Source: a virus
Lineage: Duplodnaviria; Caudoviricetes
IMG/VR virus record: IMGVR_UViG_3300020434_000055
Length of the DNA: 64,000 nt
Strand: one strand, 5' to 3'
Below are positions 3,053 to 17,665 of this stretch, in pieces (position 1 is the first letter of the stretch; every line of letters begins with the position of its first letter). The position numbers were made by a program, and so were the translations under genes. Below the pieces are notes generated by a model. That model was given only the letters and a program-made list of their open reading frames with translations, had not been told where the DNA came from and did not search any database.

Positions 3053-3280
3053 ATGCATCAGAAATACAAAGAAGAATTTATTTCAGTTACAGAATTATGG
3101 CAAGATGAAATCAATGAACTTGTAAATTCTATTTCAATATTAAAAACTTCAAACAATCCATTAGATCAAAGATTACGTTGGAAATACGAAATAGTAATTG
3201 ATTATTTAAAAGGAAGAATAGAAGAAGAAACTAGAGGCAACCATGAACATCGTTTGCCTGAGAAACGTACATTACACTAA
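3053..3280 (+). CDS. Hypothetical protein
   Basis: 75-aa ORF filling the gap, converging on the minus-strand gene. Confidence 0.55.
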   Translation: MHQKYKEEFISVTELWQDEINELVNSISILKTSNNPLDQRLRWKYEIVIDYLKGRIEEETRGNHEHRLPEKRTLH

Positions 3281-3687
3281 TACGGTCCACAAGTACTAAT
3301 TACCATATACCAAAGCTCATCATATTCCCAAATGTAATCAAGTTCTTCTTTTAGATACTTTTGTTGTAAAGGCCAAGCATCTTTCTCCATTTCTTGAACA
3401 CATTTAAACTTAACATTATTCATATCTTGAATATAGTGTATAAGTTCATGAAGTAATAACCCTTTAGCCCAAGGGTCAGACATATCGGTTTCGCCTCTCA
3501 TATAAATGATCTTTTTCTTTAAATCATAAAAGCCGTGAACATCAGTATTTTCAGGTACATCACCCTTGTAATAATGGTATTCTAATGGTGCTTTGTCCAT
3601 ACGAATAACCTGCGGTACGGGCCAGTCCACATTATAATTTGTATTTGCCCCTATCCAGAGCATTAAAGCTACAATAAGTTCTTTCAT
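3277..3687 (-). CDS. Secreted HExxH protein (DUF6647-like zincin)
   Basis: Hydrophobic N-terminus, LLLHELIHYIQ motif, Cys pair. Confidence 0.6.
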   Translation of the reverse strand: MKELIVALMLWIGANTNYNVDWPVPQVIRMDKAPLEYHYYKGDVPENTDVHGFYDLKKKIIYMRGETDMSDPWAKGLLLHELIHYIQDMNNVKFKCVQEMEKDAWPLQQKYLKEELDYIWEYDELWYMVISTCGPY

Positions 3688-3813
3688 AATTTCTAATATT
3701 TATTTTTTTATTTTTTAGACTATTAACGAATAACACATAACAGCATTGTTATATGCGTACATTATACTACAGTTATGATTTAAGTTAAATACACTTACAA
3801 GAGGGAAGGGAGT

Positions 3814-6800
3814 ATGTCAGACCATTCAATTGGAAAAATTACAATTGCTGATGGTATCGTTGTAATTCAGCGAGATAATCAGTCTATAGAACTACAAGAA
3901 GGTGATTCTATCTATCTTAATGATATTGTAGAAGCTAAAAGCGGATCTGTTGGTATTACATTTACAGATGAAACTACATTTTCTATAGATGCAGGTTCTC
4001 AAGTAGTTGTAGATGAATTTGTTTACGATCCTGGTAACACAGGATCAATGAATATAAATGTCTTGGCAGGAAACTTCTCTTACATATCTGGGGAAATTTC
4101 TAAAATGGATGGTGACGTAGAAATTGTAACCCCAACTGCTACACTTACAGTTCAAGGTACCAATGTAGCAGGTAAAGTATCATTAGAAGGTGGTGGAGAC
4201 CAAATCGTATTACTTCCTAACGCAGATGGAACAGTAGGACAAGTTTTAATTACCAACCAATCAGGTAGTATATTATTAACTGAAGCATTTCAATCTACAA
4301 CAATTGCATCTGCTTTTATGCCACCAACTGTTCCTGTAATAATTCCTGAAGAAATTGTATTAAAAGAATTTGGTACTACAATTAATACTATGCAAAAAAT
4401 AAAAAAATTAGCAAAACAAGAAGCAGAAGAGGAAGTTGAAGAGGAAGTTGAAGAAGAAATTGAAGAGGAAGTTGAAGAGGAAGTTGAAGATCCATTTGAG
4501 GAAGAAATTAACGAAGAAGAATTAGAAGAATTAGAAGAAGAATTAGAAGAAGAAACACAACCAGTTGTTGACGAAGAAGTGGTTATTGAAGATGATATAT
4601 TTGAAGAAGAGCCAATTGTTGAAGAACAAGAGGATCAACCTGTCGTAGAAGATACAGTTATAGAAGATGAAATTATAAACGATGAACCTGAAGAGGAAGA
4701 TACTACAACAGAAGAGGATACTACAACAGAAGAAGAGGATACTACAACAGAAGAAGAGGATACTTATATACCACCTGTTATTCCTGACCCTGATCCTCCT
4801 GTTATTGAAGAGGACGAAGAAGAAGACATTTATGTACCACCTGTTACTGAAGAGGAAGATAACGACACTTATGTACCACCTGTTACTGAAGAAGATGAGG
4901 AAGAACCGGAAGTTAATGAAGCACCAACATTTGAAACAACAAGTGCTGTATCAGTTGCAGAAAGTCTTTCTAATGGATCAACTCTTGTTACTATGTCAGC
5001 AACAGATCCTAATACAGATACATCATTAAACACATTAACATATTCAATTACAGCAGGAAATGATGAAGGTAAATTTGCAATTAATTCATCAACTGGTGTA
5101 ATAACATATGCGACACAGGCGTCTACATTAACAACTCAAACATTTGAAAGTTTTTCTAATGGAGCAACAGCAACAGGATGGTCTGGTGATAATGCAGTTT
5201 TAGATACTAATAAATGGACAACTGTACTAGGAAAAATTAATGGTAGCATAAGTTCAACTCAAGACGTTTATAAAACATTTGACTATTCATCTGATTACGC
5301 AGGAAAAAGAGTTGCAATAGACTTTTTGTTTTGGGAGTGGGGTACTTGGGACGCACACAATTACAATCCAGATGGTGGAACAGAACAATTCCGTGTATAT
5401 GTTAATGATACAAATGTTGTTGCTGATGACAGACGTAAAGATGGATTTGGTGCAGGTGATAAAAAATATGGAGTAGAAACACAAAGCACTGGTTGGGATC
5501 CAGTACAAGATTCAAGCTTCTACGGTGACCAAGAAGGAGAACTTTATACAGTATATGGCACACTGGACGCAAGTGGAGATTTAAAATTAGGGTTTGGTAT
5601 GCGAGTTGGTGAAAGTGAATCCAATGAATCAGGAGCAATAGATAATTTAAAAATTTACTTAACAGATTTAAACTACGAAGATAATCAACAATATGTATTA
5701 ACCGTTCAAGCAAGTGATGGCAGTTTATCTGCAACCACAACACAAACAATTAATATAACAGATGTAAATGAAGCACCAAGAATGGAAGAAGCCAGAGATC
5801 CTGTATCAGTTGCTGAAGATACTGCTGACAATACAAACATAGCATCAATTTTTGCAGAAGATCCAGACGGTGACGATATTACATATTCAATTACAGCAGG
5901 TAATACAAATAGCAAATTTTCTATTACGTATTACAATTCTACAAATTCAGGTTTAATTGAAACAAACGGATCAATAGATTATGAAACAACACCACAATAT
6001 ACTTTAACTATAACAGCAACTGATGAAGGCGGTTTAACTACAACTACAACACAGGTTATTAATGTAACCAATGTTAACGAAGCACCAACTCTTGCTAGTA
6101 TGAATAATGTATCATTAGCGGAGAGTGTAAGCTCAGGTACATCAGTTGCAACTGCTTCGGGTTCTGATGTTGATGCAAGTACAACTTTAACATATTCAAT
6201 TTCATCTGGAAATAGTGCAGGCAAATTTGCAATTAATTCCAGCACAGGTGCTATTACTACTGCGGCATCACTAGATTATGAAACTACAACATCTTATACG
6301 TTAGTGGTTCAAGTAAGTGATGGATCTTTAACAGCAACTACAAATCAAGTTGTTAATATAACCAATGTTACAGAGCAATTCCAAGGAACAGCTAATTCTG
6401 GTACAGCGGCTACCTGGGGAGCAAATTTTAGTAATGATATGGTATTTGACAACGCATGGGCCAATGCCAAAATAGGATTTTTTGGTGACTTCCATAACTT
6501 TTCTACTTCTGAAAAAAATGTCATAACAAATATAGCAGAGGACTCTGCTGTAGGATTTGATGATGCCTTACACTTCGCTGACGGCTCAATAGACAATTAC
6601 ACATTTAAAGAGTTGTCAAACTATTCTATGGTTGTTGACTCTACGATAAGTGCATCAAATACATTTGACGATGAAGCATTAGTTCTAAACTTGTTAAGAG
6701 CAGGAACCACAGTAATGGTTGTAGGAGAGAACGCATATTGGGACATCGGCAATCACGCCAGTAATATGAAAATAGAATACATGGCAGATTTAATTGACAG

Positions 6801-7794
6801 TGACATAGATACTAACAATCGTCTTAGCATATTGAGTGGTTCAGATTCTGGAGGTTCTCCTACAGAGGGTCAAGAAATACAATCGGCCTACAACGTATCC
6901 TCTTATGGTGCAGATGATTCTGGCAGTTACGATACATCAAGAGGAGATGGACACGCCTTACCAGGTCGATTCCACGAAGAACATTTAGGATCAGGAGATC
7001 TTATAGCAATTGAAGACGATGGAGCATCCGTCGGAGAAAGACACGGTCACATCGCAGAATGGGACAAAGATGATTCAGACGCAGAATTCTTTGGTGCATA
7101 TATTGGACACGCAGACGGAAACGCATTTGAAAACTCTTGGGACGGCGACGGTAGAGTACAAGCAGACATATTTAAATGGGGATTAGAACAAAATCAAAAT
7201 GTAGATATTATAACAACCGACACAGAATATCTACCAATTGGTGGTTTAAAAACAACATATGGTTGGACCAATACTGCCAATAATACTAAAAGTTCTGTTG
7301 AAGCATTTCATATGGGTAACAATGTTTATATTGGAGGAGGTTTTGATCACTTAGATTGGGTGTGGGATGATTCAGCAAATGCGGCATTCATTGCTGTAAA
7401 CACGGACATGGATGGTGCAGATGAAAACGACGCTCCAACAAGACAAGATGACCATTACCTTGTTATTGGTGCTGATATAGATGGTGATGCAAATCTTTGG
7501 GAAACTACTGACGTATTTGATTTAGATAAAATCGGACTTTGGTCTGATTCGGACGACTTTTTAACACAAGACTCTGATGCTTCAGGCGATTACTACTTTA
7601 AAATTACACCGGTTACTTACGCAAACAGTTCATGGACAGTAGAAACTGATAATACAGTCACAATAGCTGATACATCAAATTATTACAATACAGGATACAT
7701 AGATTTAATGTCTAACTCAGATTTCCAAGACATTAACTACGCAATAATTGAAACGGAATCTGCTTTGATTTCAGATGTACTCGTAACTTATTAA
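3814..7794 (+). CDS. Large FecR-domain / acidic linker / cadherin-repeat protein (candidate T1SS substrate or adhesin)
   Basis: N-terminal FecR-like domain (GITFTDETTFSID..VVDEFVYDP..TPTATLTVQGT), Glu-rich linker, cadherin repeats (VNEAPTF, DVNEAP, NVNEAP; LDYETT..YTL.V..SDG), no signal peptide; TAAATA at 3786-3791. Confidence 0.8.
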   Translation: MSDHSIGKITIADGIVVIQRDNQSIELQEGDSIYLNDIVEAKSGSVGITFTDETTFSIDAGSQVVVDEFVYDPGNTGSMNINVLAGNFSYISGEISKMDGDVEIVTPTATLTVQGTNVAGKVSLEGGGDQIVLLPNADGTVGQVLITNQSGSILLTEAFQSTTIASAFMPPTVPVIIPEEIVLKEFGTTINTMQKIKKLAKQEAEEEVEEEVEEEIEEEVEEEVEDPFEEEINEEELEELEEELEEETQPVVDEEVVIEDDIFEEEPIVEEQEDQPVVEDTVIEDEIINDEPEEEDTTTEEDTTTEEEDTTTEEEDTYIPPVIPDPDPPVIEEDEEEDIYVPPVTEEEDNDTYVPPVTEEDEEEPEVNEAPTFETTSAVSVAESLSNGSTLVTMSATDPNTDTSLNTLTYSITAGNDEGKFAINSSTGVITYATQASTLTTQTFESFSNGATATGWSGDNAVLDTNKWTTVLGKINGSISSTQDVYKTFDYSSDYAGKRVAIDFLFWEWGTWDAHNYNPDGGTEQFRVYVNDTNVVADDRRKDGFGAGDKKYGVETQSTGWDPVQDSSFYGDQEGELYTVYGTLDASGDLKLGFGMRVGESESNESGAIDNLKIYLTDLNYEDNQQYVLTVQASDGSLSATTTQTINITDVNEAPRMEEARDPVSVAEDTADNTNIASIFAEDPDGDDITYSITAGNTNSKFSITYYNSTNSGLIETNGSIDYETTPQYTLTITATDEGGLTTTTTQVINVTNVNEAPTLASMNNVSLAESVSSGTSVATASGSDVDASTTLTYSISSGNSAGKFAINSSTGAITTAASLDYETTTSYTLVVQVSDGSLTATTNQVVNITNVTEQFQGTANSGTAATWGANFSNDMVFDNAWANAKIGFFGDFHNFSTSEKNVITNIAEDSAVGFDDALHFADGSIDNYTFKELSNYSMVVDSTISASNTFDDEALVLNLLRAGTTVMVVGENAYWDIGNHASNMKIEYMADLIDSDIDTNNRLSILSGSDSGGSPTEGQEIQSAYNVSSYGADDSGSYDTSRGDGHALPGRFHEEHLGSGDLIAIEDDGASVGERHGHIAEWDKDDSDAEFFGAYIGHADGNAFENSWDGDGRVQADIFKWGLEQNQNVDIITTDTEYLPIGGLKTTYGWTNTANNTKSSVEAFHMGNNVYIGGGFDHLDWVWDDSANAAFIAVNTDMDGADENDAPTRQDDHYLVIGADIDGDANLWETTDVFDLDKIGLWSDSDDFLTQDSDASGDYYFKITPVTYANSSWTVETDNTVTIADTSNYYNTGYIDLMSNSDFQDINYAIIETESALISDVLVTY
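4426..4915 (+). repeat. Low-complexity acidic tandem repeats (EEEVEEEV, EEDTTT x3, YVPPVTEE x2) in the linker
   Basis: gaagaggaagtt units near 4426-4490; gaagaggatactacaaca units near 4696-4760. Confidence 0.8.
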
Positions 7795-7798
7795 AATT

Positions 7799-9487
7799 AT
7801 GAACAAACTTATTATAACATTATTATTTTTCCTTTTATCCTTTAGCTGGAGTCATGCAGAAATTGAAGGCTCAGATGGATGTACATGGAAAGTAACTGAA
7901 GAAACAGATGAATATATAATGGAGAGCTGTGGTACTAATAATGCTAGGATCAGGCAAAAACATTCTATTGAAATGACTTATGTACCAAGCAAAGAAAAAC
8001 TAGTAAATCCTATAGACAAATTTAAAAAAATTGTTATAACACCAGAGGGAAAAGAAACTGAAAAAGAAATTAAAAAAATAGAAGAGGATATTACAATTAC
8101 AGAAAAAAAAGTTAAAGAGATAATTACAGATAAAGCATTAGAAGAAAAACAAATTATAGAAAGTGGAAAAAATGAAAAGATTATCAACGAAACAAAAGAT
8201 TCGTCAACTACGGATATTAAAGAAGAGATTAAAAAGAAAGAAACATTAACTTGGCAACGTCTCTATCAACTACTTCCAAGTCTTATTGTAAAAAACGAAA
8301 AAGTAAAAGCCGCAGAATTAGATTACGAAGCGGCGGTAGAAACATTAAAGAAAACGTATTCAGCATACTATCCACAAGTAACAATTACATATGGACATAA
8401 TTGGGAAGACGATAGAACACCATCAAAAAGTTCTACGGCTGGAGTTGATTCAATAAAAAATGATGGAAAACATGGCTACCAATCATCTATAACAATCACA
8501 CAAATGATTTGGGACTTTGGACGAACTAATTCTTTAATTGATATGGAACGAACAAAGGCTCAACAAACTTACTTTCATTTAGAACTTGCAAAAGAAGATC
8601 TTGTAATGGAGGCTATTAGTGCTTGGTTAAATTTAATGAAAACCTATAATGTACATGAAGCAAATAAAAAAATAGAAGCCAATGCATTGAAAACACTATC
8701 CATGACGATAGAAAAAGTTAAAAAAGGTGAAGCATCTAAATTAGAACAACTACAAATTGAACAGCAATATAGAACTTTCCAAACATTAACAATGACAAGC
8801 CAGTTAGCAGTTGATTCAGCAAAACAACGATTCCAAAATGTTTGGAGATTTAAACCTCTTGATGTTGCTAATATGCCTATGCCAATTACAGACTTGTTAG
8901 GATTAATACCTGATTCAGGAGCATCTGTAAGAAGTAACACTACATTAAAAATTGCAGATGCAGATATTGAAATTGCACTAGGGCAACTTAGATATGATAA
9001 CGCAGAGTTTAAACCAAGAATAGATGGTAAATTATCTTACACAGAAAAAGAAGGTGAACTAGGCGGAGCATACAATGAACAAAAAGAAGAGTGGAGAGCA
9101 GATATTACATTAAGTTGGAAAATATTTGGTGGATTTTCTAACGTACATCAAAAAAGAAGTGATATGGCAAAACTAGGTTCTGCAGAACTTAGATATGAAG
9201 ACGTTGTAAGAATTGTAAATGAACAATTTAACAATGCTTGGAACAATTACGTATTAGTTGAAAAGAACTTAGAAACACTAAAAAGAACTGTTGAAATTAA
9301 CAAAGAAATGTATGCCTTAACACTTGAAGATTTTAAAGCAGGTAACTCTCCTATCATAGCTGTATTTGGAATGAAGACAGCATATATCATGAGCGAAGTT
9401 GCTTACCAAAATGCACAAATTGACCTTTTAATAGCAAGATATCAATTACATAAAGTTCTTGGACTCGTAGATCCCATCTTCAACTAA
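7799..9487 (+). CDS. TolC-family outer-membrane channel with charged N-terminal extension
   Basis: Signal peptide; two-repeat OEP pattern (YYPQVTIT, QMIWDFGRT, FKPRIDG, LSWKIFGGF, ARYQLHKVLG). Confidence 0.85.
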   Translation: MNKLIITLLFFLLSFSWSHAEIEGSDGCTWKVTEETDEYIMESCGTNNARIRQKHSIEMTYVPSKEKLVNPIDKFKKIVITPEGKETEKEIKKIEEDITITEKKVKEIITDKALEEKQIIESGKNEKIINETKDSSTTDIKEEIKKKETLTWQRLYQLLPSLIVKNEKVKAAELDYEAAVETLKKTYSAYYPQVTITYGHNWEDDRTPSKSSTAGVDSIKNDGKHGYQSSITITQMIWDFGRTNSLIDMERTKAQQTYFHLELAKEDLVMEAISAWLNLMKTYNVHEANKKIEANALKTLSMTIEKVKKGEASKLEQLQIEQQYRTFQTLTMTSQLAVDSAKQRFQNVWRFKPLDVANMPMPITDLLGLIPDSGASVRSNTTLKIADADIEIALGQLRYDNAEFKPRIDGKLSYTEKEGELGGAYNEQKEEWRADITLSWKIFGGFSNVHQKRSDMAKLGSAELRYEDVVRIVNEQFNNAWNNYVLVEKNLETLKRTVEINKEMYALTLEDFKAGNSPIIAVFGMKTAYIMSEVAYQNAQIDLLIARYQLHKVLGLVDPIFN

Positions 9488-9510
9488 TAAAATCATTAAA
9501 TACAACTATA

Positions 9511-10263
9511 ATGAAAAGTCTAATTCAACATCTATCCCGCGATAAAAAAACTGCTTTGATGTTATTAATCAGTAGTTTAATTATTGGTATATGTGCATTG
9601 ACTCCTGCCTTATTTGTAATCATTGTATTAAACAAGTATCTTGCATCAGGGATTACAGCAACTTTAATATCGTTAACAGCAGGGGCCGTATTAGCTTTAG
9701 GTTTTGAATTCACATTTAGACAAAATAGATCAATAATGATGCAGGAATTTAATCGAAAAATTTATGATCCATTACTAAAAGCATTTGTAGAAAAATTAAA
9801 AACAGTTCAAAATTTACCTACTAACGAATTTAAAAAATTAGATGGTGCTGGTACTATGATTAAAAATATGCGTACCTCATCAGTTACTAGTTGGATATTG
9901 GATTGGCCATTTGTATTATCATTTTTAATAGTTTTAGTTTTTATAAACTGGACCGCGGCTGTTATAACTGCAATTTTTATGATTATATTAAACAGAGTTA
10001 TTACATGGAGAACAAATTTAAATCTTACACAAGATTCTATGTCTAGTGTTGAAATCCTTATAACTGGATTATTAACATTGTCAATTATTGCCATTGGAGC
10101 ATTAATGATTATGCAAGGACGTTTAGATGTTGGAACTTTAATTGGATCTAACATATTAGCCGCGAGAGCATTACAAGGAACAAACAAATATACAAAAGCA
10201 AAGGAGTTTATACAACAACGTGATAGAGCAGTCTCAGAAATCGTCAGTTTCGTCAAGCAGTAA
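9511..10263 (+). CDS. T1SS ABC-transporter transmembrane domain only (no NBD)
   Basis: ALTPALFVIIVLNKYL..TLISLT, LDWPF, G.LDVGTLIGSNILAARAL resemble PrtD/HlyB TMD; no Walker A/B. Confidence 0.75.
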   Translation: MKSLIQHLSRDKKTALMLLISSLIIGICALTPALFVIIVLNKYLASGITATLISLTAGAVLALGFEFTFRQNRSIMMQEFNRKIYDPLLKAFVEKLKTVQNLPTNEFKKLDGAGTMIKNMRTSSVTSWILDWPFVLSFLIVLVFINWTAAVITAIFMIILNRVITWRTNLNLTQDSMSSVEILITGLLTLSIIAIGALMIMQGRLDVGTLIGSNILAARALQGTNKYTKAKEFIQQRDRAVSEIVSFVKQ

Positions 10264-10945
10264 ATTCTTTTTAGGAATTACAGCTTTATTTGTAGCATTC
10301 ATAGTATGGATGTGGTTTGCTAAAGTAGATATTACTACTCAAGCAGTAGGATATGTTGTACCTGAAAGTAATTTTACTTCCATAGACACAATGGTTAATG
10401 GACAAGTTATTGAAGTAAAAGTTAAACAAGGTGATTCAGTTAAAAAAGGAGATGTAATTCTTATTATTAATCCAGGTGTAGGTTATGAACCTTATAATGT
10501 AATTGCTAATATAGATGGACGAATACAAACTTTAAATTATAAAAATCCTGGAGCAGTTGTTAATAAAGGTGAAACCATAGTGTTACTAGTCCCTGTAAAT
10601 CAAAAGTTAATTGTAACAGGTAAACTATTTGTTAAAGATAGAGGCTATGTTGAAGTAGGACAATCAGCAAAAATTAAACTTGCTAATCAAGATCAATTAA
10701 AATTTGGACCTATTGATGCAACAATAATATCTATATCGCCAGATGCAGTACAATCACAACAAGGAACTTGGTATGAAATAGAATTAGAACTTGAGCAACA
10801 AAAATTTACTTCAGGTAGTATTGATTATACATTAGTGCCGGGTATACAAGTACAAATCTTTATATTAACTGGTGAAAGAACAATATTAAGTTATGTTACT
10901 ACACCATTCCATAATAGTATAGGACAAGCCTTACAAGAAAGATAA
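10220..10945 (+). CDS. HlyD-family membrane-fusion protein lacking the alpha-helical hairpin
   Basis: TM anchor, GQVIEVKVKQGDSVKKGDVI, IDGRI..PGAVVNKGE, VEVGQ, ISISPDA, LVPG, TGERTILSY; GTG start with AAGGAG at 10201. Confidence 0.85.
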   Translation: MIEQSQKSSVSSSSKFFLGITALFVAFIVWMWFAKVDITTQAVGYVVPESNFTSIDTMVNGQVIEVKVKQGDSVKKGDVILIINPGVGYEPYNVIANIDGRIQTLNYKNPGAVVNKGETIVLLVPVNQKLIVTGKLFVKDRGYVEVGQSAKIKLANQDQLKFGPIDATIISISPDAVQSQQGTWYEIELELEQQKFTSGSIDYTLVPGIQVQIFILTGERTILSYVTTPFHNSIGQALQER

Positions 10946-10946
10946 T

Positions 10947-13142
10947 TTAATCTGTTTGAATAATAGTTATTTCTGGTTTAGTAGTATCTGTACCAATTGT
11001 TATATTTTGAGTTTCTGAATCTTGAACTATTTGAATATCTGCAGATTTATCCGTTTCAGTTTTTATATATGCAGTATGACCACCATGCGTTCTGTTTACA
11101 ACTGAATAATTTCCACTTGTAGTAGCAGTAGCATCATCTTCATTGCCACCTGTTGTAAATCTTCCTGTTGCTGTTGTACTTTCACCATCTGTTGTTGTAG
11201 TTTGAGTAAGTTCACCTGTTGTATAATTAATAATTTCACCACTAGTTGTTACTGTTGTTTCTGATCCACTATTGTCAACCCATTCTGTACCACAAGACTG
11301 AGCCGCATTATTCCAATAGTAACCCCAGTTAACACAATCTTCTTCATTATCAATTTCTGCTAACCATAATTCTAATTCTAAATCTTGATCATAATCATCT
11401 TCGTAACCATACTCTTCTTCTAATGATACTGAATCATCATCTTCTTCATACTCGCCATAGTAATACCAGGCATAAGTCCAATCATAAAATGTTTGCCAAT
11501 CGTTCCAAGTCCAATCAGCAATATACTTGTCTTTTAAACTTGGCATATCCCACGGAGCAGGTTGACCTTCACACATTTCCCATTTATAACTGCTTACCCA
11601 ACACCATCCATACCATTTGTTGAAAAGTTGTTTAGATTCTGATGTCCATGAAGTATAATTTTTAAACAACTTCCAGTCATCTGTATACCAGTCATTTAAG
11701 TAATCTATATATTCTTGATTACACCAATCACTACCATAGCCATTGTAATTACAATAATTTTCTATTGTTAAAGTTGGCGGACCTCCATTTGCTATGTAAT
11801 CTGCGTTAGCATAATATTCATCATTTAAAGCAAAATCTTCCCAAGTGTATCCTTCAACTGTAGACGTTGCTTCTTCTTCAACTTCTTCAGATTTATCTTC
11901 TACTTGATTATCATAAGCCGTTAAACCATAATCTTCTAATAGGTCGTTATATTCTTCCATATATTCGTCCCAATTAACTTCATCCCAATTAATAGAATCC
12001 CAATTAATTGTGTCCCACGTACAATCTGAACAACCTATTGCGTCAAAGTATGCTTGGTCCATTTCTGCATACATCTGTTTAGCATCATCCCAATCCATTG
12101 TTTGTTCGCCTTCAGCGTCCCATACTGATATTTGATTGTCATCATCTATATAACCCCAATCTTTTAAATCGTCTTCCCATTCATCATAGTAAGATGTGTC
12201 TATGTCTGATTCTACTACTTCGTCTACTACTATATCTTGAGTAGAACTTGTATCTATTTCACTTGATTGTGTTGTAAAATCTTCAACTACCGCCGTAGTG
12301 TCTGATGTTAGTGTATCTGATTCAATTGTTAATTCCTCTGATACAATTTGTTCTTCTATTTCATTAGCTTCTTTGGCATCCATTTCTATTTCTAAAGTTT
12401 CTTGTTCTAACAACTCATTAGATTCAAACATTTCTTTTTCATTTTCTAAAAATTCGTTATTATCTTTTCTATCAAATTGAAGGTCGTTTTTATCTTCAAT
12501 GTCGTCTTCTACACTATCTAAATCAAATAAATTCTTTTTCTGAAGATTATCTAATGGGGATGGTGCCCTAGGTACTAGGTTATCACTAAGAACTGTTACT
12601 GATGTATATACTTGAGTTATTGTTTGAGAGCCTGCATCATTAGAAACTGTAACTGCTCCTACTTGTCCAGAAGAATCAGGAAGTAATGTAATTGTAGTAA
12701 CACCGCTTGTTGATACTGATCCTGAAAATGCTGTACCTTGTACTGTAATTGATGCTGTTGGCGTTACAATTTCAACGTCTCCTCCTAACTTAGAAACTTC
12801 GCCAGACTCATAGGTAAACGTTCCTACGTTAACCGATACGTTCATTGAAATTTCTATTGGTACAACTGTTGTATCAAAAGCAAATTCATCAATTAAAAAT
12901 TCTGTATTGGGTGCAAGAGTAACTTTTGTATTATCTACGAACACAATGTTCATAGCACCATCTTCTCCAGTTTGGAGAAAGTCATGCATTTCTAAAAGAT
13001 ATCCTGAAACAACCTTATAAGTTTTTCCTGAACGTTCATTAAACGTAGAACCCATTTTATCTTTAACTTCACCTACAGTTATAGCTAAAGCATTTGTAAC
13101 AAATAGTATTAAAAATGATACCACAAAGAAGAACTTCTTCAT
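10947..13142 (-). CDS. Secreted FecR-domain protein with acidic Trp/Tyr/Cys-rich C-terminal region
   Basis: Signal peptide MKKFFFVV..NALA (ATG 13142; ORF track starts at 13151); FecR domain paralogous to 3814 gene. Confidence 0.8.
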   Translation of the reverse strand: MKKFFFVVSFLILFVTNALAITVGEVKDKMGSTFNERSGKTYKVVSGYLLEMHDFLQTGEDGAMNIVFVDNTKVTLAPNTEFLIDEFAFDTTVVPIEISMNVSVNVGTFTYESGEVSKLGGDVEIVTPTASITVQGTAFSGSVSTSGVTTITLLPDSSGQVGAVTVSNDAGSQTITQVYTSVTVLSDNLVPRAPSPLDNLQKKNLFDLDSVEDDIEDKNDLQFDRKDNNEFLENEKEMFESNELLEQETLEIEMDAKEANEIEEQIVSEELTIESDTLTSDTTAVVEDFTTQSSEIDTSSTQDIVVDEVVESDIDTSYYDEWEDDLKDWGYIDDDNQISVWDAEGEQTMDWDDAKQMYAEMDQAYFDAIGCSDCTWDTINWDSINWDEVNWDEYMEEYNDLLEDYGLTAYDNQVEDKSEEVEEEATSTVEGYTWEDFALNDEYYANADYIANGGPPTLTIENYCNYNGYGSDWCNQEYIDYLNDWYTDDWKLFKNYTSWTSESKQLFNKWYGWCWVSSYKWEMCEGQPAPWDMPSLKDKYIADWTWNDWQTFYDWTYAWYYYGEYEEDDDSVSLEEEYGYEDDYDQDLELELWLAEIDNEEDCVNWGYYWNNAAQSCGTEWVDNSGSETTVTTSGEIINYTTGELTQTTTTDGESTTATGRFTTGGNEDDATATTSGNYSVVNRTHGGHTAYIKTETDKSADIQIVQDSETQNITIGTDTTKPEITIIQTD

Positions 13143-13144
13143 GA

Positions 13145-14236
13145 TTAACACCCGTTGGATACGTTTTGAGTAAGATTGCCGGATTGATTATTTCTATTGT
13201 ACGAATATGTACAAGTATCTGAACCGTCTTGTGTAAAGTTTAATGTATAATCGTAAATTGAATCACCTGATACAGTAACGTGAGCTGTATTACTTCCACC
13301 TGTTTGAGCAAAGTTTATATTTGAATCATCTGTATAGATATAAATTCTAGCAGTATTATTTCCACCTGCCATATGTAGTCCTAATGTATTATCATCTCCA
13401 GATATGTACGTTCTCAAATAATTGCCGTCACCCAATATCGTCATAGTATCTCCATAAGGATCAGTATCAACACTAGTGTAACTAGAGTGAATATCTAAAA
13501 TATTTGAACTACCTATAATATCGTGAAGTTGATAATTGCCCGTACCATACGATGAAGTGTGTAATCTATTTGAATTACCAACTATATAAACATCAATTGA
13601 TGCACCTTCACTTCCTGATGAATCTGCAAACTGACTATGCGAAGCAGTTTGTGGACCAATTGCCTTATTAGCATTTGTATTAAATCCTTCTGAATCAGCA
13701 GTGCTATAAAACTGTACATCATTTGAATCTCCCGCCATACGAACATATAAGAAATGATCATCACCTCTACTACGAACCCAAAAAGTATTTGAATCTCCAT
13801 AGATATCTAAATCAACGTTAAGATTGTCCATATCATCGGCGCCCCAGGCGTCAAAATCTACAATGTTTAAATCACCTGTAATATCTATGTCATAATAATG
13901 ACCAGAAGAATTCGTATCATCTATATCAGGTCTCAATTTATTACCATCACCAGTTGCTGTATAATCAAAGGTCATATTAGTACCTTTAAAAGATAAGTGA
14001 TACGAATTATCAGTTACATTTGAATCACCTATTTGTTTAATAATAACAGTTAAATTGTTTCCATCAATTTTAAAAGGAGCACTAGCACTCATTCCAAACG
14101 TGTTGTTTGAACCGTCTTGTTTTATGTAAATGTCTTGACCTGTTTGGCCAATTTGTGTTATATAGACTTGATTACTTGCATAACAATTAATCGTCGTTGC
14201 TAGTAACAATATCAGACTCAATAATAATGCTTTCAT
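13145..14236 (-). CDS. Curlin-like repeat (beta-solenoid) protein
   Basis: Signal peptide MKALLL (ATG 14236, GGAGG SD at 14243-14247); many hxhxhxGxxN / QxGxxN repeats; directly after csgG. Confidence 0.7.
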   Translation of the reverse strand: MKALLLSLILLLATTINCYASNQVYITQIGQTGQDIYIKQDGSNNTFGMSASAPFKIDGNNLTVIIKQIGDSNVTDNSYHLSFKGTNMTFDYTATGDGNKLRPDIDDTNSSGHYYDIDITGDLNIVDFDAWGADDMDNLNVDLDIYGDSNTFWVRSRGDDHFLYVRMAGDSNDVQFYSTADSEGFNTNANKAIGPQTASHSQFADSSGSEGASIDVYIVGNSNRLHTSSYGTGNYQLHDIIGSSNILDIHSSYTSVDTDPYGDTMTILGDGNYLRTYISGDDNTLGLHMAGGNNTARIYIYTDDSNINFAQTGGSNTAHVTVSGDSIYDYTLNFTQDGSDTCTYSYNRNNQSGNLTQNVSNGC

Positions 14237-15467
14237 CTGCAACCTCCAATGCGGCTTTAGTGTCATTCATTTCTGCTTGTAATTTTACTTTACGATCTTC
14301 TTTCATCTCGAGCTTTAATTGTTTCGCAACTAATATTTTTAAGTGTTCTTGATATTCTGCCCAAGTTTTAAATTCTGTACCGTTAGCTTTATTGTACCAA
14401 GCTAATTCATTTTTTTGAACTTTCTTTAAATGTTTTTTAGCCAACAATGCGGCTTTCTTAGCTTCTTTCTCTGCCAACAATGCTTCTTTTTTAGCTAACT
14501 TCTCTGCTTTAATTAATTCTTTTTTAGCTTTCTTCTCTTCTAATAATGCAAGTTTTTTAGCTTTCTTCTCTGCTAGGTATTCTTCCCTTGTTTTAACTTT
14601 TATTATTGTTTGTTCAACATCTAATGATACCTTTTCTTCAGTTACTACTTCTGCATCTGATTCTTCAATAACTTCTGGTAGTACTGGTTCAGGTGGTAGT
14701 TTAATTTTCCATAGTTCTTTTTTAGCACCTACTTGTATAATTTCTGCAACGCCGGCTTCAATTGCTTTTCTTACAGCAAAAGTTACTGGTTCGTTTCTTG
14801 CCACTCCTGCTTCTGATTCTAATAACATTGTATCAGCATCAAAGTATTTGAATATATCTGCACCTTTTCCTGTTGAGAATATTGTTTTTTCGATTGTTGT
14901 TGATATAACAACCTCACCTGTTTGCACATTTACTAATCTTAAAATAATAGTAACTACATCCTGTCTGTATTGTGTATTGGCTTGTACGCCTAAAATTCTT
15001 GCACCTATTCCACCTGATTTAGTATCTGAATCGTAACCTACTATACCACCTGTAATATAAGCACCAGCAAATAGTAATGCTGGTAATGGTTCAGCATTAT
15101 CTCCATCTGCCATTTGTCTTGTTGATCTAATAAGTTTTCTTTCTTGTAATAGACTTGGTAGACTTGCTCTTTCAACAACTCTAAACCATTTGCCGTCTCC
15201 AACATCTTGTAATGCTTTAATTAAAATTTGATATGAACCTTGAGTTACTGCTGTACTCATTGATGCAAAATTGCCACCTGGCTTCTTTTGTCCAGTCATA
15301 TCTAAGAAGTCATACACAGCAATTATAACAGGGTCTCCATCTAATTCAGGAACCTCTATATATGTTTTTGCAGTTGGTACTTGAGTTCTAAAATCAAAAT
15401 CTGGTTTTCCGGCGCAACTAGCTAAAAACAATGTTGCTAAAAATATGATTGCTAATTTTTTAAACAT
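14187..15467 (-). CDS. csgG: CsgG curli secretion channel lipoprotein with Lys/Ala-rich C-terminal extension
   Basis: Lipobox LASC; VYDFLDMTGQKK, STAVTQG, WFRVVER..L..LLQERKLIR, GGIVGYD, QYRQDVVT..LRLVNVQTGEV. Confidence 0.9.
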   Translation of the reverse strand: MFKKLAIIFLATLFLASCAGKPDFDFRTQVPTAKTYIEVPELDGDPVIIAVYDFLDMTGQKKPGGNFASMSTAVTQGSYQILIKALQDVGDGKWFRVVERASLPSLLQERKLIRSTRQMADGDNAEPLPALLFAGAYITGGIVGYDSDTKSGGIGARILGVQANTQYRQDVVTIILRLVNVQTGEVVISTTIEKTIFSTGKGADIFKYFDADTMLLESEAGVARNEPVTFAVRKAIEAGVAEIIQVGAKKELWKIKLPPEPVLPEVIEESDAEVVTEEKVSLDVEQTIIKVKTREEYLAEKKAKKLALLEEKKAKKELIKAEKLAKKEALLAEKEAKKAALLAKKHLKKVQKNELAWYNKANGTEFKTWAEYQEHLKILVAKQLKLEMKEDRKVKLQAEMNDTKAALEVADESIIIESDIVTSNDD

Positions 15468-15472
15468 TATTA

Positions 15473-15922
15473 TTAGTCTTCCTTCGGCATTGTAAATGTT
15501 GTTACAGTTCCATCAGTTTCAGTCACAGTAACAACTACGTTACCTGTGTTAGGTGTAGTCCAAGTTACAATTTCTCCACCAACTGGTGATGTAAATGTTC
15601 CTGAATCTTGTTGTAAGCCGTCAGCACCAAATACGTTTGTTGTAATTTGTTTTGCCAATGCTGTATAAAATCTTGATTCTAAATTTGCTTTGAATTTTGC
15701 AATCGCAGTATTCTTTGCATCTTGCTCTGCTTTGTCAGCCGCGGCTTTTTCAGCGGCTTTTATAGCATCTTTTCTTGTTTTTTCTATGTTTTCAATAGTC
15801 AAATAGTGTGAACTTTTGCCCTCTCCACTAAAAGATGGGCTATGAAACTTAAAACCTATTTCACTGGCGTTTACACCAGTCATTATAAAGCAAAATAGTA
15901 ATATAGCTGTTAGAATCTTCAT
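15473..15922 (-). CDS. csgF: CsgF curli assembly component
   Basis: Signal peptide then SEIGFKFHSPSFSG; adjacent to csgG; ATG 15922 with GAGGAG SD (ORF track start 15934). Confidence 0.75.
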   Translation of the reverse strand: MKILTAILLFCFIMTGVNASEIGFKFHSPSFSGEGKSSHYLTIENIEKTRKDAIKAAEKAAADKAEQDAKNTAIAKFKANLESRFYTALAKQITTNVFGADGLQQDSGTFTSPVGGEIVTWTTPNTGNVVVTVTETDGTVTTFTMPKED

Positions 15923-15959
15923 TGTACTCCTCAAATTTGTCTAATTCTATTAATGTTAA

Positions 15960-16011
15960 TATTTATGCACAACCAATCAGATAAACTAGTCGGTTAAAGT
16001 TTACTTAAATA
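15960..16011. promoter_or_regulatory. Divergent late-type promoters between csgF and the cyclase
   Basis: Minus-strand ATAAATA (tatttat 15960-15966) and plus-strand TAAATA 16006-16011. Confidence 0.55.
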
Positions 16012-16021
16012 TTATACTATT

Positions 16022-17665
16022 ATGTCAAAACTTTTAACAAGCAAATGGGCAGTTTGTATCACTTTATTGATTCTTTTACTCATTAAGTGGGCAGACCCAA
16101 CCCCTATTCAATCAGCAAAACTTACGACCTTTGATTCTTATCAAAAATTTGGACAACACCTTGACTCAAAGAGCTTAATTCTGTTAGATATATCCGATGG
16201 ATCCTTAACAAAAGGAGGTCAATGGCCTTGGAAACGAGATAACATAGGTCGAGTAATAGTTAATGCATATCGCAATGGCGCCGCCTTGGTAGTACTTCAA
16301 GTCGTATTTGCACATAAAGATAGGCTAGGTGGAGATGAAATGTTTCTTAAAATGATTTCAAGATATCCAATTATCCTTACTGAAACTAATGATGTTAAAA
16401 ACTTGCTCAGCATTGAACGAAAAGCACTTGCAATAGGTAACGTAGATGTACCTGTTGATATAGATGGCACAATAAGAAAACTTCCACTTGAAAATTCTAT
16501 TCCAGAAGTAGTACTAAAAGTAATCAAGTTTCCTACTAAAGCAAAAAATGACATATGGATAGACTTCCGTCATCATATTCCAAGAATAGATGCTACTGAT
16601 AAAGACTGGTCAGCAATGAAAGGCAAAATAGTTTTTATTGGAACTACATTTAAAGGTTCAACATTTGTTACTACTCCTAATGGCTTAAAAAATACACACG
16701 AGATAATGGCTATTAGTACTGAAACATTATTGTCAGGCAAATTTATTAGTAGACCAGATTGGCTAGAAAAAATGGAATGGGCATTTGTTATTATAGGAAG
16801 TATACTATTTCTAATTTTAATTCCAAGACTAGGTGTCCTATGGAGTTTTGTACCTATTATAGTTTATCTAAGTATTGTCCTTGGAGCAAGTGCTTACCTA
16901 TGGACAACAAATCTATATCTTACAGAATGGTTAACACCTGTTGTAATTGTTACCTTTGTTTGGGGACATTTAATATACAATAATTTTGCACGTGAGAACA
17001 GATTAAAATTACAAATCAAAAGACAGTTTGAACACTACCTTGCACCCGACATGGTTAAGAAGTTACAAAAAGATCCTTCACTATTAAAACTGGGTGGCGA
17101 AACAAAAACAATGACATTTATGTTTTCAGACATACGAGGCTTTACTCCTATATCAGAAAAATTTAAAAGCAATCCTGCAGGACTTACAAAACTTATTAAC
17201 AGATTCTTAACACGTATGACAAATGTTGTAATTGCTAATAATGGAACTATAGACAAATTCATGGGCGATTGTATTATGGCATTTTGGAATGCACCAATTG
17301 ACGTTAGAGATCATCAAGGTTGTGCTATTAGAACTGCTTTATTAATGACCGTTGAATTAACTGCATTAAACAAAGAACTAAAAGCAGAAGGACTACCTAC
17401 CATTAACATAGGCATAGGAATTAACACAGGTAAAGCACTTGTAGGAAATATGGGTTCTGATCAACGGTTTGACTACTCTGTAATAGGAGACCCTGTTAAT
17501 CTTGCATCACGTTTAGAAAGTTCTAGCAAAACTTTAGGTGAAACTATAATAATTTCAGAAAATACTATACAAGGCAGAGAGCATTTATACCCTTTTAAAT
17601 TCATAGATAGCATTACTGTTAAAGGTAAAACCGAAAAAATCAAGGTTTATACAATAACAACTTAA
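16022..17665 (+). CDS. CHASE2-domain class III adenylate/guanylate cyclase
   Basis: N-terminal TM, CHASE2 (QWPWKR, VDIDGTIRKLPL), 3 TMs, FSDIRGFT, IDKFMGDCIMAFWNAP, GIGINTG..VGNMGS..RFDYSVIGDPVNLASRLE. Confidence 0.95.
   Translation: MSKLLTSKWAVCITLLILLLIKWADPTPIQSAKLTTFDSYQKFGQHLDSKSLILLDISDGSLTKGGQWPWKRDNIGRVIVNAYRNGAALVVLQVVFAHKDRLGGDEMFLKMISRYPIILTETNDVKNLLSIERKALAIGNVDVPVDIDGTIRKLPLENSIPEVVLKVIKFPTKAKNDIWIDFRHHIPRIDATDKDWSAMKGKIVFIGTTFKGSTFVTTPNGLKNTHEIMAISTETLLSGKFISRPDWLEKMEWAFVIIGSILFLILIPRLGVLWSFVPIIVYLSIVLGASAYLWTTNLYLTEWLTPVVIVTFVWGHLIYNNFARENRLKLQIKRQFEHYLAPDMVKKLQKDPSLLKLGGETKTMTFMFSDIRGFTPISEKFKSNPAGLTKLINRFLTRMTNVVIANNGTIDKFMGDCIMAFWNAPIDVRDHQGCAIRTALLMTVELTALNKELKAEGLPTINIGIGINTGKALVGNMGSDQRFDYSVIGDPVNLASRLESSSKTLGETIIISENTIQGREHLYPFKFIDSITVKGKTEKIKVYTITT

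Follow-up and report, generated by a model that had tools for sequence, protein, structure and literature searches.

The window, a 64,000-nt stretch of viral DNA, carries nine contiguous genes between positions 3814 and 17665. All nine open reading frames were present at the coordinates given in a first-pass annotation, and Pfam and NCBIfam profile searches confirmed the domains named there. Cassette 1 (3814-10945, plus strand) encodes an adhesin (protein A), a TolC-family channel, an ABC membrane domain without ATPase and a HlyD-type protein without hairpin. Cassette 2 (10947-17665) carries csgF, csgG, a curlin gene and the gene for a FecR protein (protein E) on the minus strand, and a CHASE2 cyclase on the plus strand. 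All genes of both cassettes are under purifying selection (dN/dS 0.10-0.33), and both cassettes were covered by contigs from four metatranscriptome runs, RNA libraries which may hold DNA carry-over.

Protein A (3814..7794, plus strand; 1326 aa) is a LapA/MpIBP-type adhesin (Pfam cadherin, 2.6e-42). It is composed of a retention-plug/FecR-like domain (residues ~1-180), an acidic linker (195-365; 51% Asp+Glu), three cadherin domains and a C-terminal domain of ~480 aa with no assigned fold. Like T1SS substrates, it has no signal peptide; a search for hydrophobic segments gave none. The gene is hypervariable, with orthologues of 1005-1525 aa. The TolC-family outer-membrane channel (7799..9487, plus strand; 562 aa; OEP, 1e-48) has a signal peptide and matches TIGR01844 (9.8e-36) over residues 166-555, with an additional N-terminal stretch of ~150 aa. 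It is 95% identical to its copy in the related contig L012 (dN/dS 0.12), and tblastn gave no match among 50,697 GenBank phage records.

The other two genes of cassette 1 are strongly reduced. The T1SS ABC exporter membrane domain (9511..10263, plus strand; 250 aa) matched in NCBIfam (TIGR03375, 4.5e-19) and not in Pfam; it covers positions 141-300 and 364-438 of the 696 in the profile and aligns to residues 12-202 and 257-285 of the 572 of PrtD (5l22). The nucleotide-binding domain, the C39-like domain and the second intracellular loop are absent. Among 832 homologous clusters the best 120 were all 249-250 aa, and dN/dS was 0.13. The whole 64 kb is without an ABC Walker A/LSGGQ pair, and a search of it gave no ATPase for cassette 1. 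The HlyD-type membrane fusion protein (10220..10945, plus strand; 241 aa) matches TIGR01843 (3.9e-51) in its N- and C-terminal parts only and aligns to residues 66-128 and 331-478 of HlyD (8dck), with ~200 residues missing. A short conserved loop, PGVGYEP, replaces the alpha-helical hairpin. Relatives at 67-92% identity share this length and loop (dN/dS 0.10-0.14).

The order adhesin, TolC-like channel, ABC protein, membrane fusion protein is that of the LapA/LapEBC and MpIBP systems (PMC5550230; bioRxiv 10.1101/198937). Protein A further resembles these adhesins in its missing signal peptide, RIN-like N-terminal plug, linker and Ig/cadherin-type extender repeats; the ABC membrane domain belongs to the LssB/LapB type. 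Unlike in those systems, the ABC protein lacks the ATPase and C39-like domains and the fusion protein its hairpin, RTX repeats were undetected in protein A and no LapG/LapD-like genes were seen; moreover, cassettes of this type are phage-encoded and have a CHASE2 adenylate cyclase in place of LapA-type c-di-GMP control. A LapA/MpIBP-type type I secretion adhesin operon is the probable origin of cassette 1. Marine metagenomes contain the cassette in abundance, and we met it neither among GenBank phage records nor in any paper; a type I secretion set without its ATP motor appears to be undescribed in phages.

With no ATPase in the 64 kb and the hairpin, the part normally meeting TolC, missing, export of the 1326-aa protein A is left unexplained. 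A natural membrane fusion protein without alpha-helical hairpin does function in a working tripartite system, BesA of Borrelia burgdorferi, but BesA serves an RND efflux pump driven by proton-motive force and not an ABC-type T1SS. The block might instead secrete nothing: it would then poison or hijack the TolC-dependent exporters of the host, or serve passively as a scaffold or pore across the envelope. It could act in superinfection exclusion, efflux block or lysis timing, and any A at the surface would have got there by host machinery. The loss of the nucleotide-binding domain, second coupling loop and hairpin argues for such a role, as does purifying selection on genes nonetheless stripped in this way; ABC half-transporters work as dimers, and a truncated subunit could form dead heterodimers. 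We nevertheless hold this to be unlikely, since the full, conserved operon order together with a plug-bearing substrate points to a dedicated export route, and mere interference would not need a phage-borne TolC.

In cassette 2, csgF (15473..15922, minus strand) encodes a 149-aa protein with signal peptide (Pfam CsgF, 3.1e-12), 36-37% identical to CsgF of phages HTVC008M and Melnitz; its likely true start, ATG 15922, is preceded by a GAGGAG Shine-Dalgarno. The csgG product (14187..15467, minus strand; 426 aa; Pfam CsgG, 5.6e-50) is a lipoprotein channel that aligns to E. coli CsgG residues 8-257, lipobox Cys and constriction loop included. The curlin gene (13145..14236, minus strand; ORF 13145-14266) likely starts at ATG 14236, inside the csgG 3′ end, and encodes a CsgA-like subunit of 363 aa with a signal peptide and 13 GxxN turns. 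Its profile matches were weak for Curlin_rpt (0.0088) and better for CsgA (NF007470, 8.4e-6), and its own profile matched E. coli CsgA (8enq, E 1.2e-4). The structure model is all-beta (pLDDT 75.7, pTM 0.79), with CsgA of Pontibacter korlensis (8c50) as best PDB match (Z 24.3, 23% identity), compared to Z ≤17 for generic beta-helices. The protein models as a CsgA-like beta-solenoid and is a genuine curlin subunit. Among its homologues, 60 of the 63 found measure 358-372 aa; the gene is conserved beside csgG in more than 55 contigs (dN/dS 0.24-0.33).

Cassette 2 is the known pelagiphage T8SS module (PMC9599517; HTVC008M KC465899, Melnitz MZ577097; PMC7029224, PMC9004378). The same five gene families are present, csgF-csgG-curlin-FecR follow in the same order, and CsgE, CsgC and CsgD are absent in both. 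Wittmers et al. 2022 (PMC9599517) explicitly describe CsgA/B, FecR and adenylate cyclase as parts of a single viral T8SS module, and HTVC008M and Melnitz carry GenBank-annotated curlin-repeat proteins, contrary to the first-pass annotation, in which SAR11 myophages have no curlin subunit. Window CsgG is 45% identical to that of HTVC008M and 38% to that of Melnitz, and unlike these homologues (278-280 aa) carries a Lys/Glu-rich C-terminal extension of 170 aa. The window has one 363-aa curlin and one ~731-aa FecR protein, the pelagiphage module two curlin-repeat proteins and a 368-aa FecR protein. The cyclase is divergent beside csgF and not colinear, a common variant.

An alternative proposed for Melnitz and pelagimyophages, with uptake suggested in PMC7029224 and PMC9599517, would make CsgG-CsgF a repurposed pore for lysis timing or large-solute import, with the curlin-like and FecR proteins accessory or regulatory. 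It is consistent with the absence of CsgE and with the lack of clumping in Melnitz-infected cultures (PMC9004378), which counts against a surface fibre. If no fibre subunit were secreted, however, it would be difficult to account for the preservation of a CsgA-like solenoid with signal peptide by csgG in so many contigs, and we consider the pore quite improbable.

Protein E (10947..13142, minus strand; ORF 10947-13151, 734 aa) likely starts at ATG 13142, giving ~731 aa, and matches Pfam FecR (1.7e-7). A Sec signal peptide, as needed by T8SS clients, is followed by a retention-plug/FecR-like domain, an acidic disordered linker, a Trp/Tyr/Cys-rich domain with 8 Cys and C-terminal strand-turn-strand repeats ending in an invariant ITIIQTD. 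The protein is kept full-length in more than 45 viral contigs. FecR in window protein A stays below the Pfam reporting level and is shown instead by its paralogue E (30-36% identity) and by its orthologue in contig L003, which Pfam does match to FecR (2.5e-6). Combined into one profile, the A and E N-termini matched 5ix9 alone in the PDB (E 1.5e-5), and the model of E residues 20-92 superposed on it over 73 of 76 residues at rmsd 1.3 Å (Z 12.8; Foldseek probability 1.0); residues 93-312 were poorly modelled (pLDDT <50). The 5ix9 structure is the MpIBP RIN, a periplasmic TolC plug and template for the LapA retention module (PMC5550230; bioRxiv 10.1101/198937). The "FecR" N-termini of A and E, by profile and for E also by model, match the plug with which LapA/MpIBP-type adhesins are retained in the periplasm, a new assignment. 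The earlier description of these domains as periplasmic sensors is thus better restated as a match to the retention plug of T1SS adhesins. The plug-like fold and curlin-like C-terminus of the FecR protein are not described in the pelagiphage T8SS papers cited above.

The CHASE2 receptor adenylate cyclase (16022..17665, plus strand; 547 aa) is of the curli-associated type (CHASE2, 6e-27; Guanylate_cyc, 9.8e-22). Its catalytic motifs FSDIRGFT, DKFMGD and VNLASR line up with structurally solved adenylate cyclases, and the catalytic residues are intact. Its N-terminal half is 61-93% identical to csgF-adjacent cyclases of other contigs and 23% to the T1SS-type cyclase, whereas in its catalytic half it shares 77-80% identity with both types in contig L026. 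CHASE2 sensor halves are cassette-specific (23% identity) and catalytic halves ~77% identical, a second new finding. The piece swapped relative to L012, where window 10947-16958 stands in place of 1.2 kb, consists of the curli genes and the CHASE2 half of the cyclase.

The two cassettes are separable. In at least 10 related contigs, adhesin-TolC-TMD-HlyD-cyclase (641 aa) occurs without any curli genes. All 80 CsgG-bearing viral contigs carry, as far as each extends, csgF-csgG-curlin-E with a 537-567-aa cyclase, colinear or divergent, and most of them show no T1SS block. Both blocks are seen together only in the window, L021 and L026. The 641-aa CHASE2 cyclase found downstream of cassette 1 in relatives is absent from the window; this phage has lost it. 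The reading of all nine genes as one machine, in which T8SS and T1SS jointly make a single surface structure monitored by a single cyclase, draws on their contiguity, on the junctions in L021 and L026, and on the lone cyclase of the window and of L021, which could serve both plug proteins given their homologous N-terminal domains. But the blocks stand alone in the large majority of relatives, L026 has two cyclases whose sensor domains are 23% identical, and where the cassettes meet, a single nucleotide separates their convergent stop codons and nothing regulatory is shared. The single system first proposed is therefore not upheld, and we rate it as having a slim chance.

A further reading takes the block for host DNA, either wrongly assembled into a phage contig or inserted recently and without function for the phage. 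It is largely refuted and barely credible. TolC, ABC and HlyD are genes that one typically finds in cells, and homologous cyclases and one comparable T1SS-cyclase locus occur in Alphaproteobacteria (L171, where a complete T1SS surrounds a CHASE2 cyclase that shares 38.6% identity with the T1SS-type cyclase of the phages). But GC content is even (0.30-0.38) across the whole stretch, both flanks are syntenic with many viral contigs, the same block lies between the same phage genes in independent JGI, ENA, NCBI and Logan assemblies, the best bacterial T1SS match is only 23-32% identical, and the short HlyD has no close homologue in one genome each of 185,579 species.

We see roughly even chances that the 14-kb stretch represents two independent envelope cassettes, adjacent by chance in a marine T4-like jumbo phage, which encode plug-anchored surface proteins and a cyclase reading the plug. 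In each cassette a long protein (A or E) would be held in an outer-membrane channel, CsgG and CsgF forming that of cassette 2 with the curlin as secreted fibre subunit. The N-terminal "FecR" plug would remain in the periplasm and the distal part, cadherin adhesin for A or curlin-templating repeats for E, would reach the cell surface. The cassette-specific CHASE2 domain may touch the plug and so signal what state the surface structure is in, by way of cAMP made inside the infected cell, possibly for aggregation, sibling capture or superinfection control. The phage would thus possess two separate gene sets for a putative fibre or adhesin on the infected cell, of which the curli-type set is already published. 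The middle domain of E, with its conserved Cys, may fold in the periplasm, which would argue against threading via the narrow CsgG pore. The absence of cassette 1's own cyclase from the window also counts against this mechanism, as do the lack of detected RTX repeats in A and of any LapG/LapD-like genes seen.

The link from surface structure to cAMP, already suggested in the first-pass annotation, is plausible. In Sinorhizobium meliloti the outer-membrane protein NsrA signals to the CHASE2 cyclases CyaK/CyaD1/CyaD2 (PMC7529298, PMC13001267), and Burkholderia operons combine a LysM-FecR-domain protein with a CHASE2 histidine kinase (PMC5192318). Both pair an envelope protein with an inner-membrane CHASE2 receptor of cytoplasmic output (cAMP in Sinorhizobium), and bacterial FecR-domain genes are found beside CHASE2 genes; in the phage, by contrast, the partner belongs with a secretion channel and with a fibre or adhesin. 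Among the 20 alphaproteobacterial loci nearest to the phage cyclase, 2 offer a precedent with a FecR neighbour (detectable by the phage-derived profile), a low count that also weighs against the mechanism, and one (L171) has the T1SS-cyclase arrangement described above. The earlier interpretation is overall partly supported: phage origin, curlin and csgF promoter stand, the single system and curlin-less myophages do not.

TAAATA boxes lie, as claimed, at 3786, 9497, 15960 (minus strand, starting at 15965/15966) and 16006. The hexamer is rare in the window (58 sites versus 136-167 for other AT-rich hexamers), with 38% of sites ≤40 nt upstream of a gene. Three of the four, all but that of csgF, are of the TTAAATA type, a class only weakly gene-proximal (17%). 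One of them (3785..3791, plus strand; AAGTTAAATA), 23 nt upstream of gene A, is kept upstream of A orthologues in L012 and L003 amid different intergenic sequence. The csgF box (15959..15966, minus strand; CATAAATA), ~35 nt upstream of the gene, resembles a T4-type late promoter and is the only one of ATAAATA type, of which 61% of window sites lie ≤40 nt upstream of a gene. (T/C)ATAAATA is kept upstream of csgF in L021, L026, L036, L049 and L072, the rest of the intergenic DNA being divergent. Wiring into the late programme, proposed for the whole module, is hence convincing for the csgF operon but not for the other three boxes. One ATAAATA box of the window lies before nrdA; in T4 that gene is not a late one.

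The first-pass annotation had proposed a nine-gene block, and this was borne out: nine ORFs occupy positions 3814-17665 of the window and their domains were matched with Pfam and NCBIfam. On the plus strand, protein A (1326 aa, starting at 3814), with three cadherin domains (Pfam, 2.6e-42), is followed by a TolC-family protein (562 aa, 7799-9487; OEP 1e-48, TIGR01844 9.8e-36), an ABC membrane-domain protein (250 aa, 9511-10263) which has no Pfam match and is recognised by the NCBIfam model TIGR03375 of T1SS ABC exporters (4.5e-19), and a HlyD-type adaptor (241 aa, 10220-10945; TIGR01843 3.9e-51). These four genes are termed cassette 1 here. Cassette 2 (10947-17665) carries on the minus strand CsgF (Pfam CsgF 3.1e-12 across the whole profile), CsgG (Pfam CsgG 5.6e-50), a curlin-like protein (363 aa, CsgA-like by profile and model) and protein E (734 aa, FecR 1.7e-7). 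Their true starts are likely ATG 15922 for csgF, 14236 for curlin and 13142 for E. On the plus strand it carries a CHASE2 class III cyclase (16022-17665; CHASE2 6e-27, Guanylate_cyc 9.8e-22).

The possibility, raised earlier, that the block is a host chimera was rejected from uniform composition (GC 0.30-0.38 throughout the window, no step at the module) and from repeated synteny, the module having the same flanking genes in independent assemblies (JGI, ENA, NCBI and Logan). Elsewhere the window carries genes for ribonucleotide reductase, a T4-type clamp-loader-like ATPase, DNA ligase, endolysin, and baseplate and tail-fibre proteins. CheckV completeness of a related 117.8-kb contig is 33%, and a megablast search of GenBank phages with the 13.9-kb region found no match.

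We then compared the many relatives retrieved, using for cassette 1 TolC, the short HlyD and the ABC membrane domain as queries and for curli contigs CsgG. At least 10 contigs carry on a single strand, in this order, an adhesin (1005-1525 aa), TolC (562 aa), the membrane domain (250 aa), the short HlyD (241 aa) and, immediately after it, a CHASE2 cyclase of 641 aa, and none of these contains curli genes. The order csgF-csgG-curlin-E with a cyclase of 537-567 aa was found in all 80 viral contigs retrieved with CsgG, as far as each extends, the cyclase being either colinear, as in the pelagiphage HTVC008M, or divergent beside csgF, as in the window. The two blocks are visibly joined only in the window and in two related viral contigs, L021 and L026. 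Thus the claim that all nine genes form a single system was not supported: the T1SS-like and curli blocks are separable, each occurring without the other in relatives.

The junction can be read by comparison with L012, a related viral contig. The window aligns with it at 90.5% as far as the stop of HlyD (10946), and the match resumes at 16959; the 6 kb between these positions stand in place of 1.2 kb in L012. The swapped piece comprises E, curlin, CsgG, CsgF and the CHASE2-encoding half of the cyclase. At 10943-10949, the convergent HlyD and E stop codons lie one base apart, which leaves no room for terminators, and this gap coincides exactly with the left recombination junction.

Since its CHASE2 half came with the curli piece, the window cyclase is of the curli type, and cassette 1 has lost its own cyclase in this phage. 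Accordingly, the N-terminal half of the window cyclase shares 61-93% identity with other curli-type cyclases and 23% with the T1SS type, while its catalytic half shows 77-80% identity to both cyclase types of L026. Two cyclases are carried by L026 (14361-16286 and 7676-9322) and also by the related contigs L024, L027 and L032. Judged from these alignments, the pattern suggests that output domains are homogenised and sensor domains cassette-specific, and that the output domains of paralogous cyclases undergo gene conversion within a genome. In other contigs, the catalytic domain of many orthologous curli-type cyclases is only about 60% identical to that of the window. In the window cyclase, the catalytic motifs FSDIRGFT, DKFMGD (with its Lys) and VNLASR line up with CyaB (3r5g) and other solved adenylate cyclases; the protein has the catalytic Asp pair, substrate Lys and Asn/Arg pair of active adenylate cyclases and its predicted product is cAMP. 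CHASE2 is flanked by hydrophobic segments and predicted to be periplasmic.

A curli module with a FecR protein and a cyclase is already published and is not to be counted as a discovery here. The pelagiphages HTVC008M and Melnitz are annotated with csgF, csgG, curlin-repeat proteins, a FecR protein and adenylate cyclase. The cluster was discussed by Zaragoza-Solas et al. 2020 (PMC7029224) and Buchholz et al. 2022 (PMC9004378), with csgA/B regarded as missing. The same view in the first-pass annotation is outdated, because Wittmers et al. 2022 (PMC9599517) identified CsgA/B, together with FecR and the cyclase, in a conserved viral T8SS module of myo- and podoviruses. That module was mapped at all 65 GOV2.0 stations, with transcripts found, and a role in aggregation, superinfection defence or import was proposed (PMC9599517); no clumping was observed with Melnitz (PMC9004378).

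The expected beta-solenoid of the curlin-like protein was recovered. The protein has a signal peptide and 13 GxxN turns, and its model (32-sequence alignment, pLDDT 75.7, pTM 0.79) is all-beta. In an exhaustive VIA search the best PDB match was the long CsgA of Pontibacter korlensis (8c50; Z 24.3, 23% identity over 283 residues, rmsd 9.1 A), with generic beta-helices well below (Z at most 17). Foldseek of the model against PDB and Swiss-Prot models gave weak generic beta-helix matches only; the profile matches E. coli CsgA (8enq, E 1.2e-4). The modelled fold thus supports the published CsgA/B view. CsgG aligns with E. coli CsgG (3x2r, residues 8-257), lipobox Cys included, and its constriction loop is present with the Asn-Phe pair shifted by a few residues. 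The window CsgG also has a Lys/Glu-rich, probably coiled-coil C-terminal extension of 170 aa (14190-14702, minus strand), which is missing from E. coli CsgG and from the HTVC008M and Melnitz proteins (278-280 aa) and varies in length across viral contigs. No direct match of CsgF to E. coli CsgF in PDB was obtained with phmmer. Neither CsgE nor a separate CsgB was found among the nine proteins with Pfam and NCBIfam; CsgE is missing from published viral modules too (PMC9599517). Conceivably, the curlin-like C-terminus of E could act as a CsgB-type nucleator. The Cys-rich middle domain of E may, however, be unable to pass through CsgG, and E could instead be a periplasmic gate in place of CsgE.

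The TAAATA boxes previously taken as late-type fared unevenly. ATAAATA occurs within 40 nt upstream of a start at 11 of its 18 sites, against 4-13% for other AT-rich hexamers, and (T/C)ATAAATA before csgF is kept in five relatives. It is credible that the curli operon has a T4-type late promoter. The CATAAATA box is one of this type before csgF; the three boxes ahead of A, the membrane-domain gene and the cyclase belong to a weaker class, TTAAATA. The one before A is kept in L012 and L003, another related contig, amid an otherwise different spacer. Scans for sigma-70 promoters and terminators remained at or below shuffle expectation.

Cassette 1 appears to be undescribed in phages. TolC gave no tblastn match among 50,697 GenBank phage records, no phage-encoded TolC or T1SS was found in the literature by phrase search, and TolC, type I secretion and HlyD are unmentioned in the pelagiphage literature as far as checked. 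Its gene order, adhesin-TolC-ABC-MFP, is that of LapA/MpIBP type I systems and the membrane domain is of the LssB/LapB type, but the ABC ATPase domain and the MFP hairpin of LapA/Lss systems are missing. Of the 572 residues of PrtD (5l22), 12-202 and 257-285 are covered by the ABC protein in alignment; the second intracellular loop and the entire ATPase are missing. No ABC Walker A/LSGGQ pair was found within the 64-kb window, and a PF00005 search of three related viral records without the TolC block gave partial P-loop matches only. Similarly, the adaptor aligns to HlyD (8dck) residues 66-128 and 331-478, that is, membrane anchor, lipoyl, beta-barrel and membrane-proximal parts, with about 10 residues in place of the hairpin of about 200 (residues 129-330). 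The loop that replaces the hairpin, PGVGYEP, is invariant in relatives at 67-92% identity. A scan of the genome collection with the short HlyD gave distant partial matches only.

A reading of these genes as pseudogene remnants was rejected from dN/dS (TolC 0.12, membrane domain 0.13, HlyD 0.10-0.14) and strict length conservation: among 832 homologous clusters of the membrane domain, the 120 best are uniformly 249-250 aa long, with identities of at least 90%. The ABC protein and the adaptor are precisely trimmed rather than decayed. Contigs on both cassettes were found in four marine metatranscriptome runs from four studies, and RNA-library pieces matched the membrane-domain gene (9667-10023) and the TolC gene (8052-8312) without mismatch, DNA carry-over being possible in both cases. 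As to its energy source and TolC docking, cassette 1 might borrow an ATPase subunit from the host, act as a dominant negative or a scaffold, or depend on an ATPase gene elsewhere in the roughly 350-kb genome. TolC carries after its signal peptide an extra Lys/Glu/Ile-rich N-terminal stretch of about 150 aa (7799-8300, plus strand), which matches no Pfam family and is 95% conserved in L012; it might make up for the missing HlyD hairpin.

Over about 180 residues at their N-termini, A and E are homologous, with 30-36% identity and motifs in common. The E model has an overall pLDDT of 62.6, reaching about 75-80 at residues 20-90, and its residues 20-92 superimpose on 5ix9 with Z 12.8 and rmsd 1.3 A over 73 of 76 residues (runner-up structure Z 4.7; Foldseek probability 1.0). 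A profile of both N-termini matched 5ix9 alone in PDB (E 1.5e-5). This structure is RIN, the N-terminal domain of a Marinomonas ice-binding adhesin, proposed to be periplasmic and to plug the TolC pore, and a template for the LapA retention module (PMC5550230; bioRxiv 10.1101/198937). We thus assign the FecR domains of both proteins as predicted retention plugs, the fold match having been made on paralogue E and the assignment of A being by the joint profile and by homology to E. The Pfam FecR model scored E at 1.7e-7 and orthologues of A at 2.5e-6 and 1.7e-7, with the window A under reporting level. Hydrophobic segments are limited to a cleavable signal peptide in E and absent from A, so the anti-sigma plus transmembrane-helix layout of FecR regulators is lacking. 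Partners of the FecA/FecI kind are missing as well, no sigma-factor or TonB-receptor gene being found among the nine. A and E should not be called iron regulators.

Beyond the plug, A has a linker of 170 residues (51% acidic), cadherin extender domains and a distal domain. With no signal peptide or hydrophobic N-terminus, this is the layout of a LapA/MpIBP-type adhesin. No HemolysinCabind (RTX) match was found with Pfam in A or its C-terminal 477 aa. C-terminal T1SS signals are not recognisable from sequence. A similar layout recurs in E, where the Sec signal peptide is followed by the plug, an acidic disordered linker, a Trp/Tyr/Cys-rich domain and C-terminal strand-turn-strand repeats of about 100 aa; these finish with the invariant ITIIQTD, an end that resembles curlin strands. 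Neither the A C-terminal 477 aa nor the E middle gave a Pfam family or a convincing ESM Atlas lead. Since E has a Sec signal peptide and A does not, one plug family would be fitted with the entry route of each channel, periplasmic for T8SS and cytoplasmic for T1SS. The window A lacks an 86-aa N-terminal extension found ahead of the plug in orthologues (L012:3707-3965, L003:6922-7180), and it is far more divergent (62-71% identity, other repeat number) than TolC (95%).

Homologous cyclases were found in 193 of 401 sampled alphaproteobacterial genomes. Among the 20 best cyclase loci, an adjacent FecR protein of 775-794 aa occurred in two and a TolC gene nearby in four. One locus (L171; alphaproteobacterial genome G182, contig C1 96000-111454) has a complete T1SS around the cyclase, with HlyD of 468 aa, ABC of 576 aa including the ATPase, and TolC, and its cyclase is 38.6% identical over the full length to the T1SS-type phage cyclase. 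A cellular counterpart of cassette 1 therefore exists with its motor complete, the phage form being the stripped one. Such T1SS-cyclase linkage may be unreported in bacteria. A 597-aa ORF beside this locus was discarded as an Arg/Gly/Pro-rich wrong-frame artefact. The FecR-domain proteins of 775-794 aa next to CHASE2 cyclases (L161:10674-13001, L169:6402-8786) have C-termini like small surface or outer-membrane beta-barrel domains, with the motif GGQF...GVFVGKK, and may be NsrA-like partners. LysM-FecR genes adjoin CHASE2 kinases (PMC5192318), and in Sinorhizobium outer-membrane NsrA is required for signalling via the CHASE2 cyclases CyaK/CyaD1/CyaD2 (PMC7529298, PMC13001267).

A simple model would have the long protein of each cassette lodged in the outer-membrane channel, its plug on the periplasmic side, where the cognate CHASE2 domain would read it. 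This model is supported by the transfer of E together with the CHASE2-encoding half relative to L012, by the sensor and catalytic identities (23% against 77%) and by the bacterial precedents. That a motor-less T1SS of marine jumbo phages still brings a LapA-like cadherin adhesin to the surface of infected cells, and that both cassettes are one plug-to-CHASE2 cAMP device giving an outside-in read-out of what the cell surface touches, is a tentative proposal which we consider rather unlikely in full. Half of the module is published. Apparently new are an abundant, conserved phage relative of LapA-type adhesin secretion without ATPase and TolC-docking hairpin, a type I adhesin retention-plug domain in the FecR proteins of both cassettes, and a CHASE2 sensor domain kept by each cassette. 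These give a testable hypothesis for what FecR and cyclase do in viral curli clusters, left open in three papers, and pose to the secretion field the question of a T1SS-like conduit without its own motor or with a borrowed host motor. Fibres or adhesins that phages direct to the surface of very abundant ocean bacteria could influence how cells aggregate, how phages are transmitted and how carbon is exported.

Upstream of the module lie three tetrapyrrole auxiliary genes: an AlaS-type aminotransferase (343-1545), a 2OG-Fe(II) oxygenase (1538-2197) and porphobilinogen deaminase (2181-3044). vAlaS has been described for pelagimyophage-like contigs (PMC11480375). A heme-oxygenase-like motif, HIYVRHMADLSGGQ, occurs near 45240, and a 641-aa protein (40810-42735, plus strand) has a weak tetraspanin-like match. 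Directly upstream of the module, a DUF6647 gene (3277-3687, minus strand) stands alone on its strand, a position kept in relatives.
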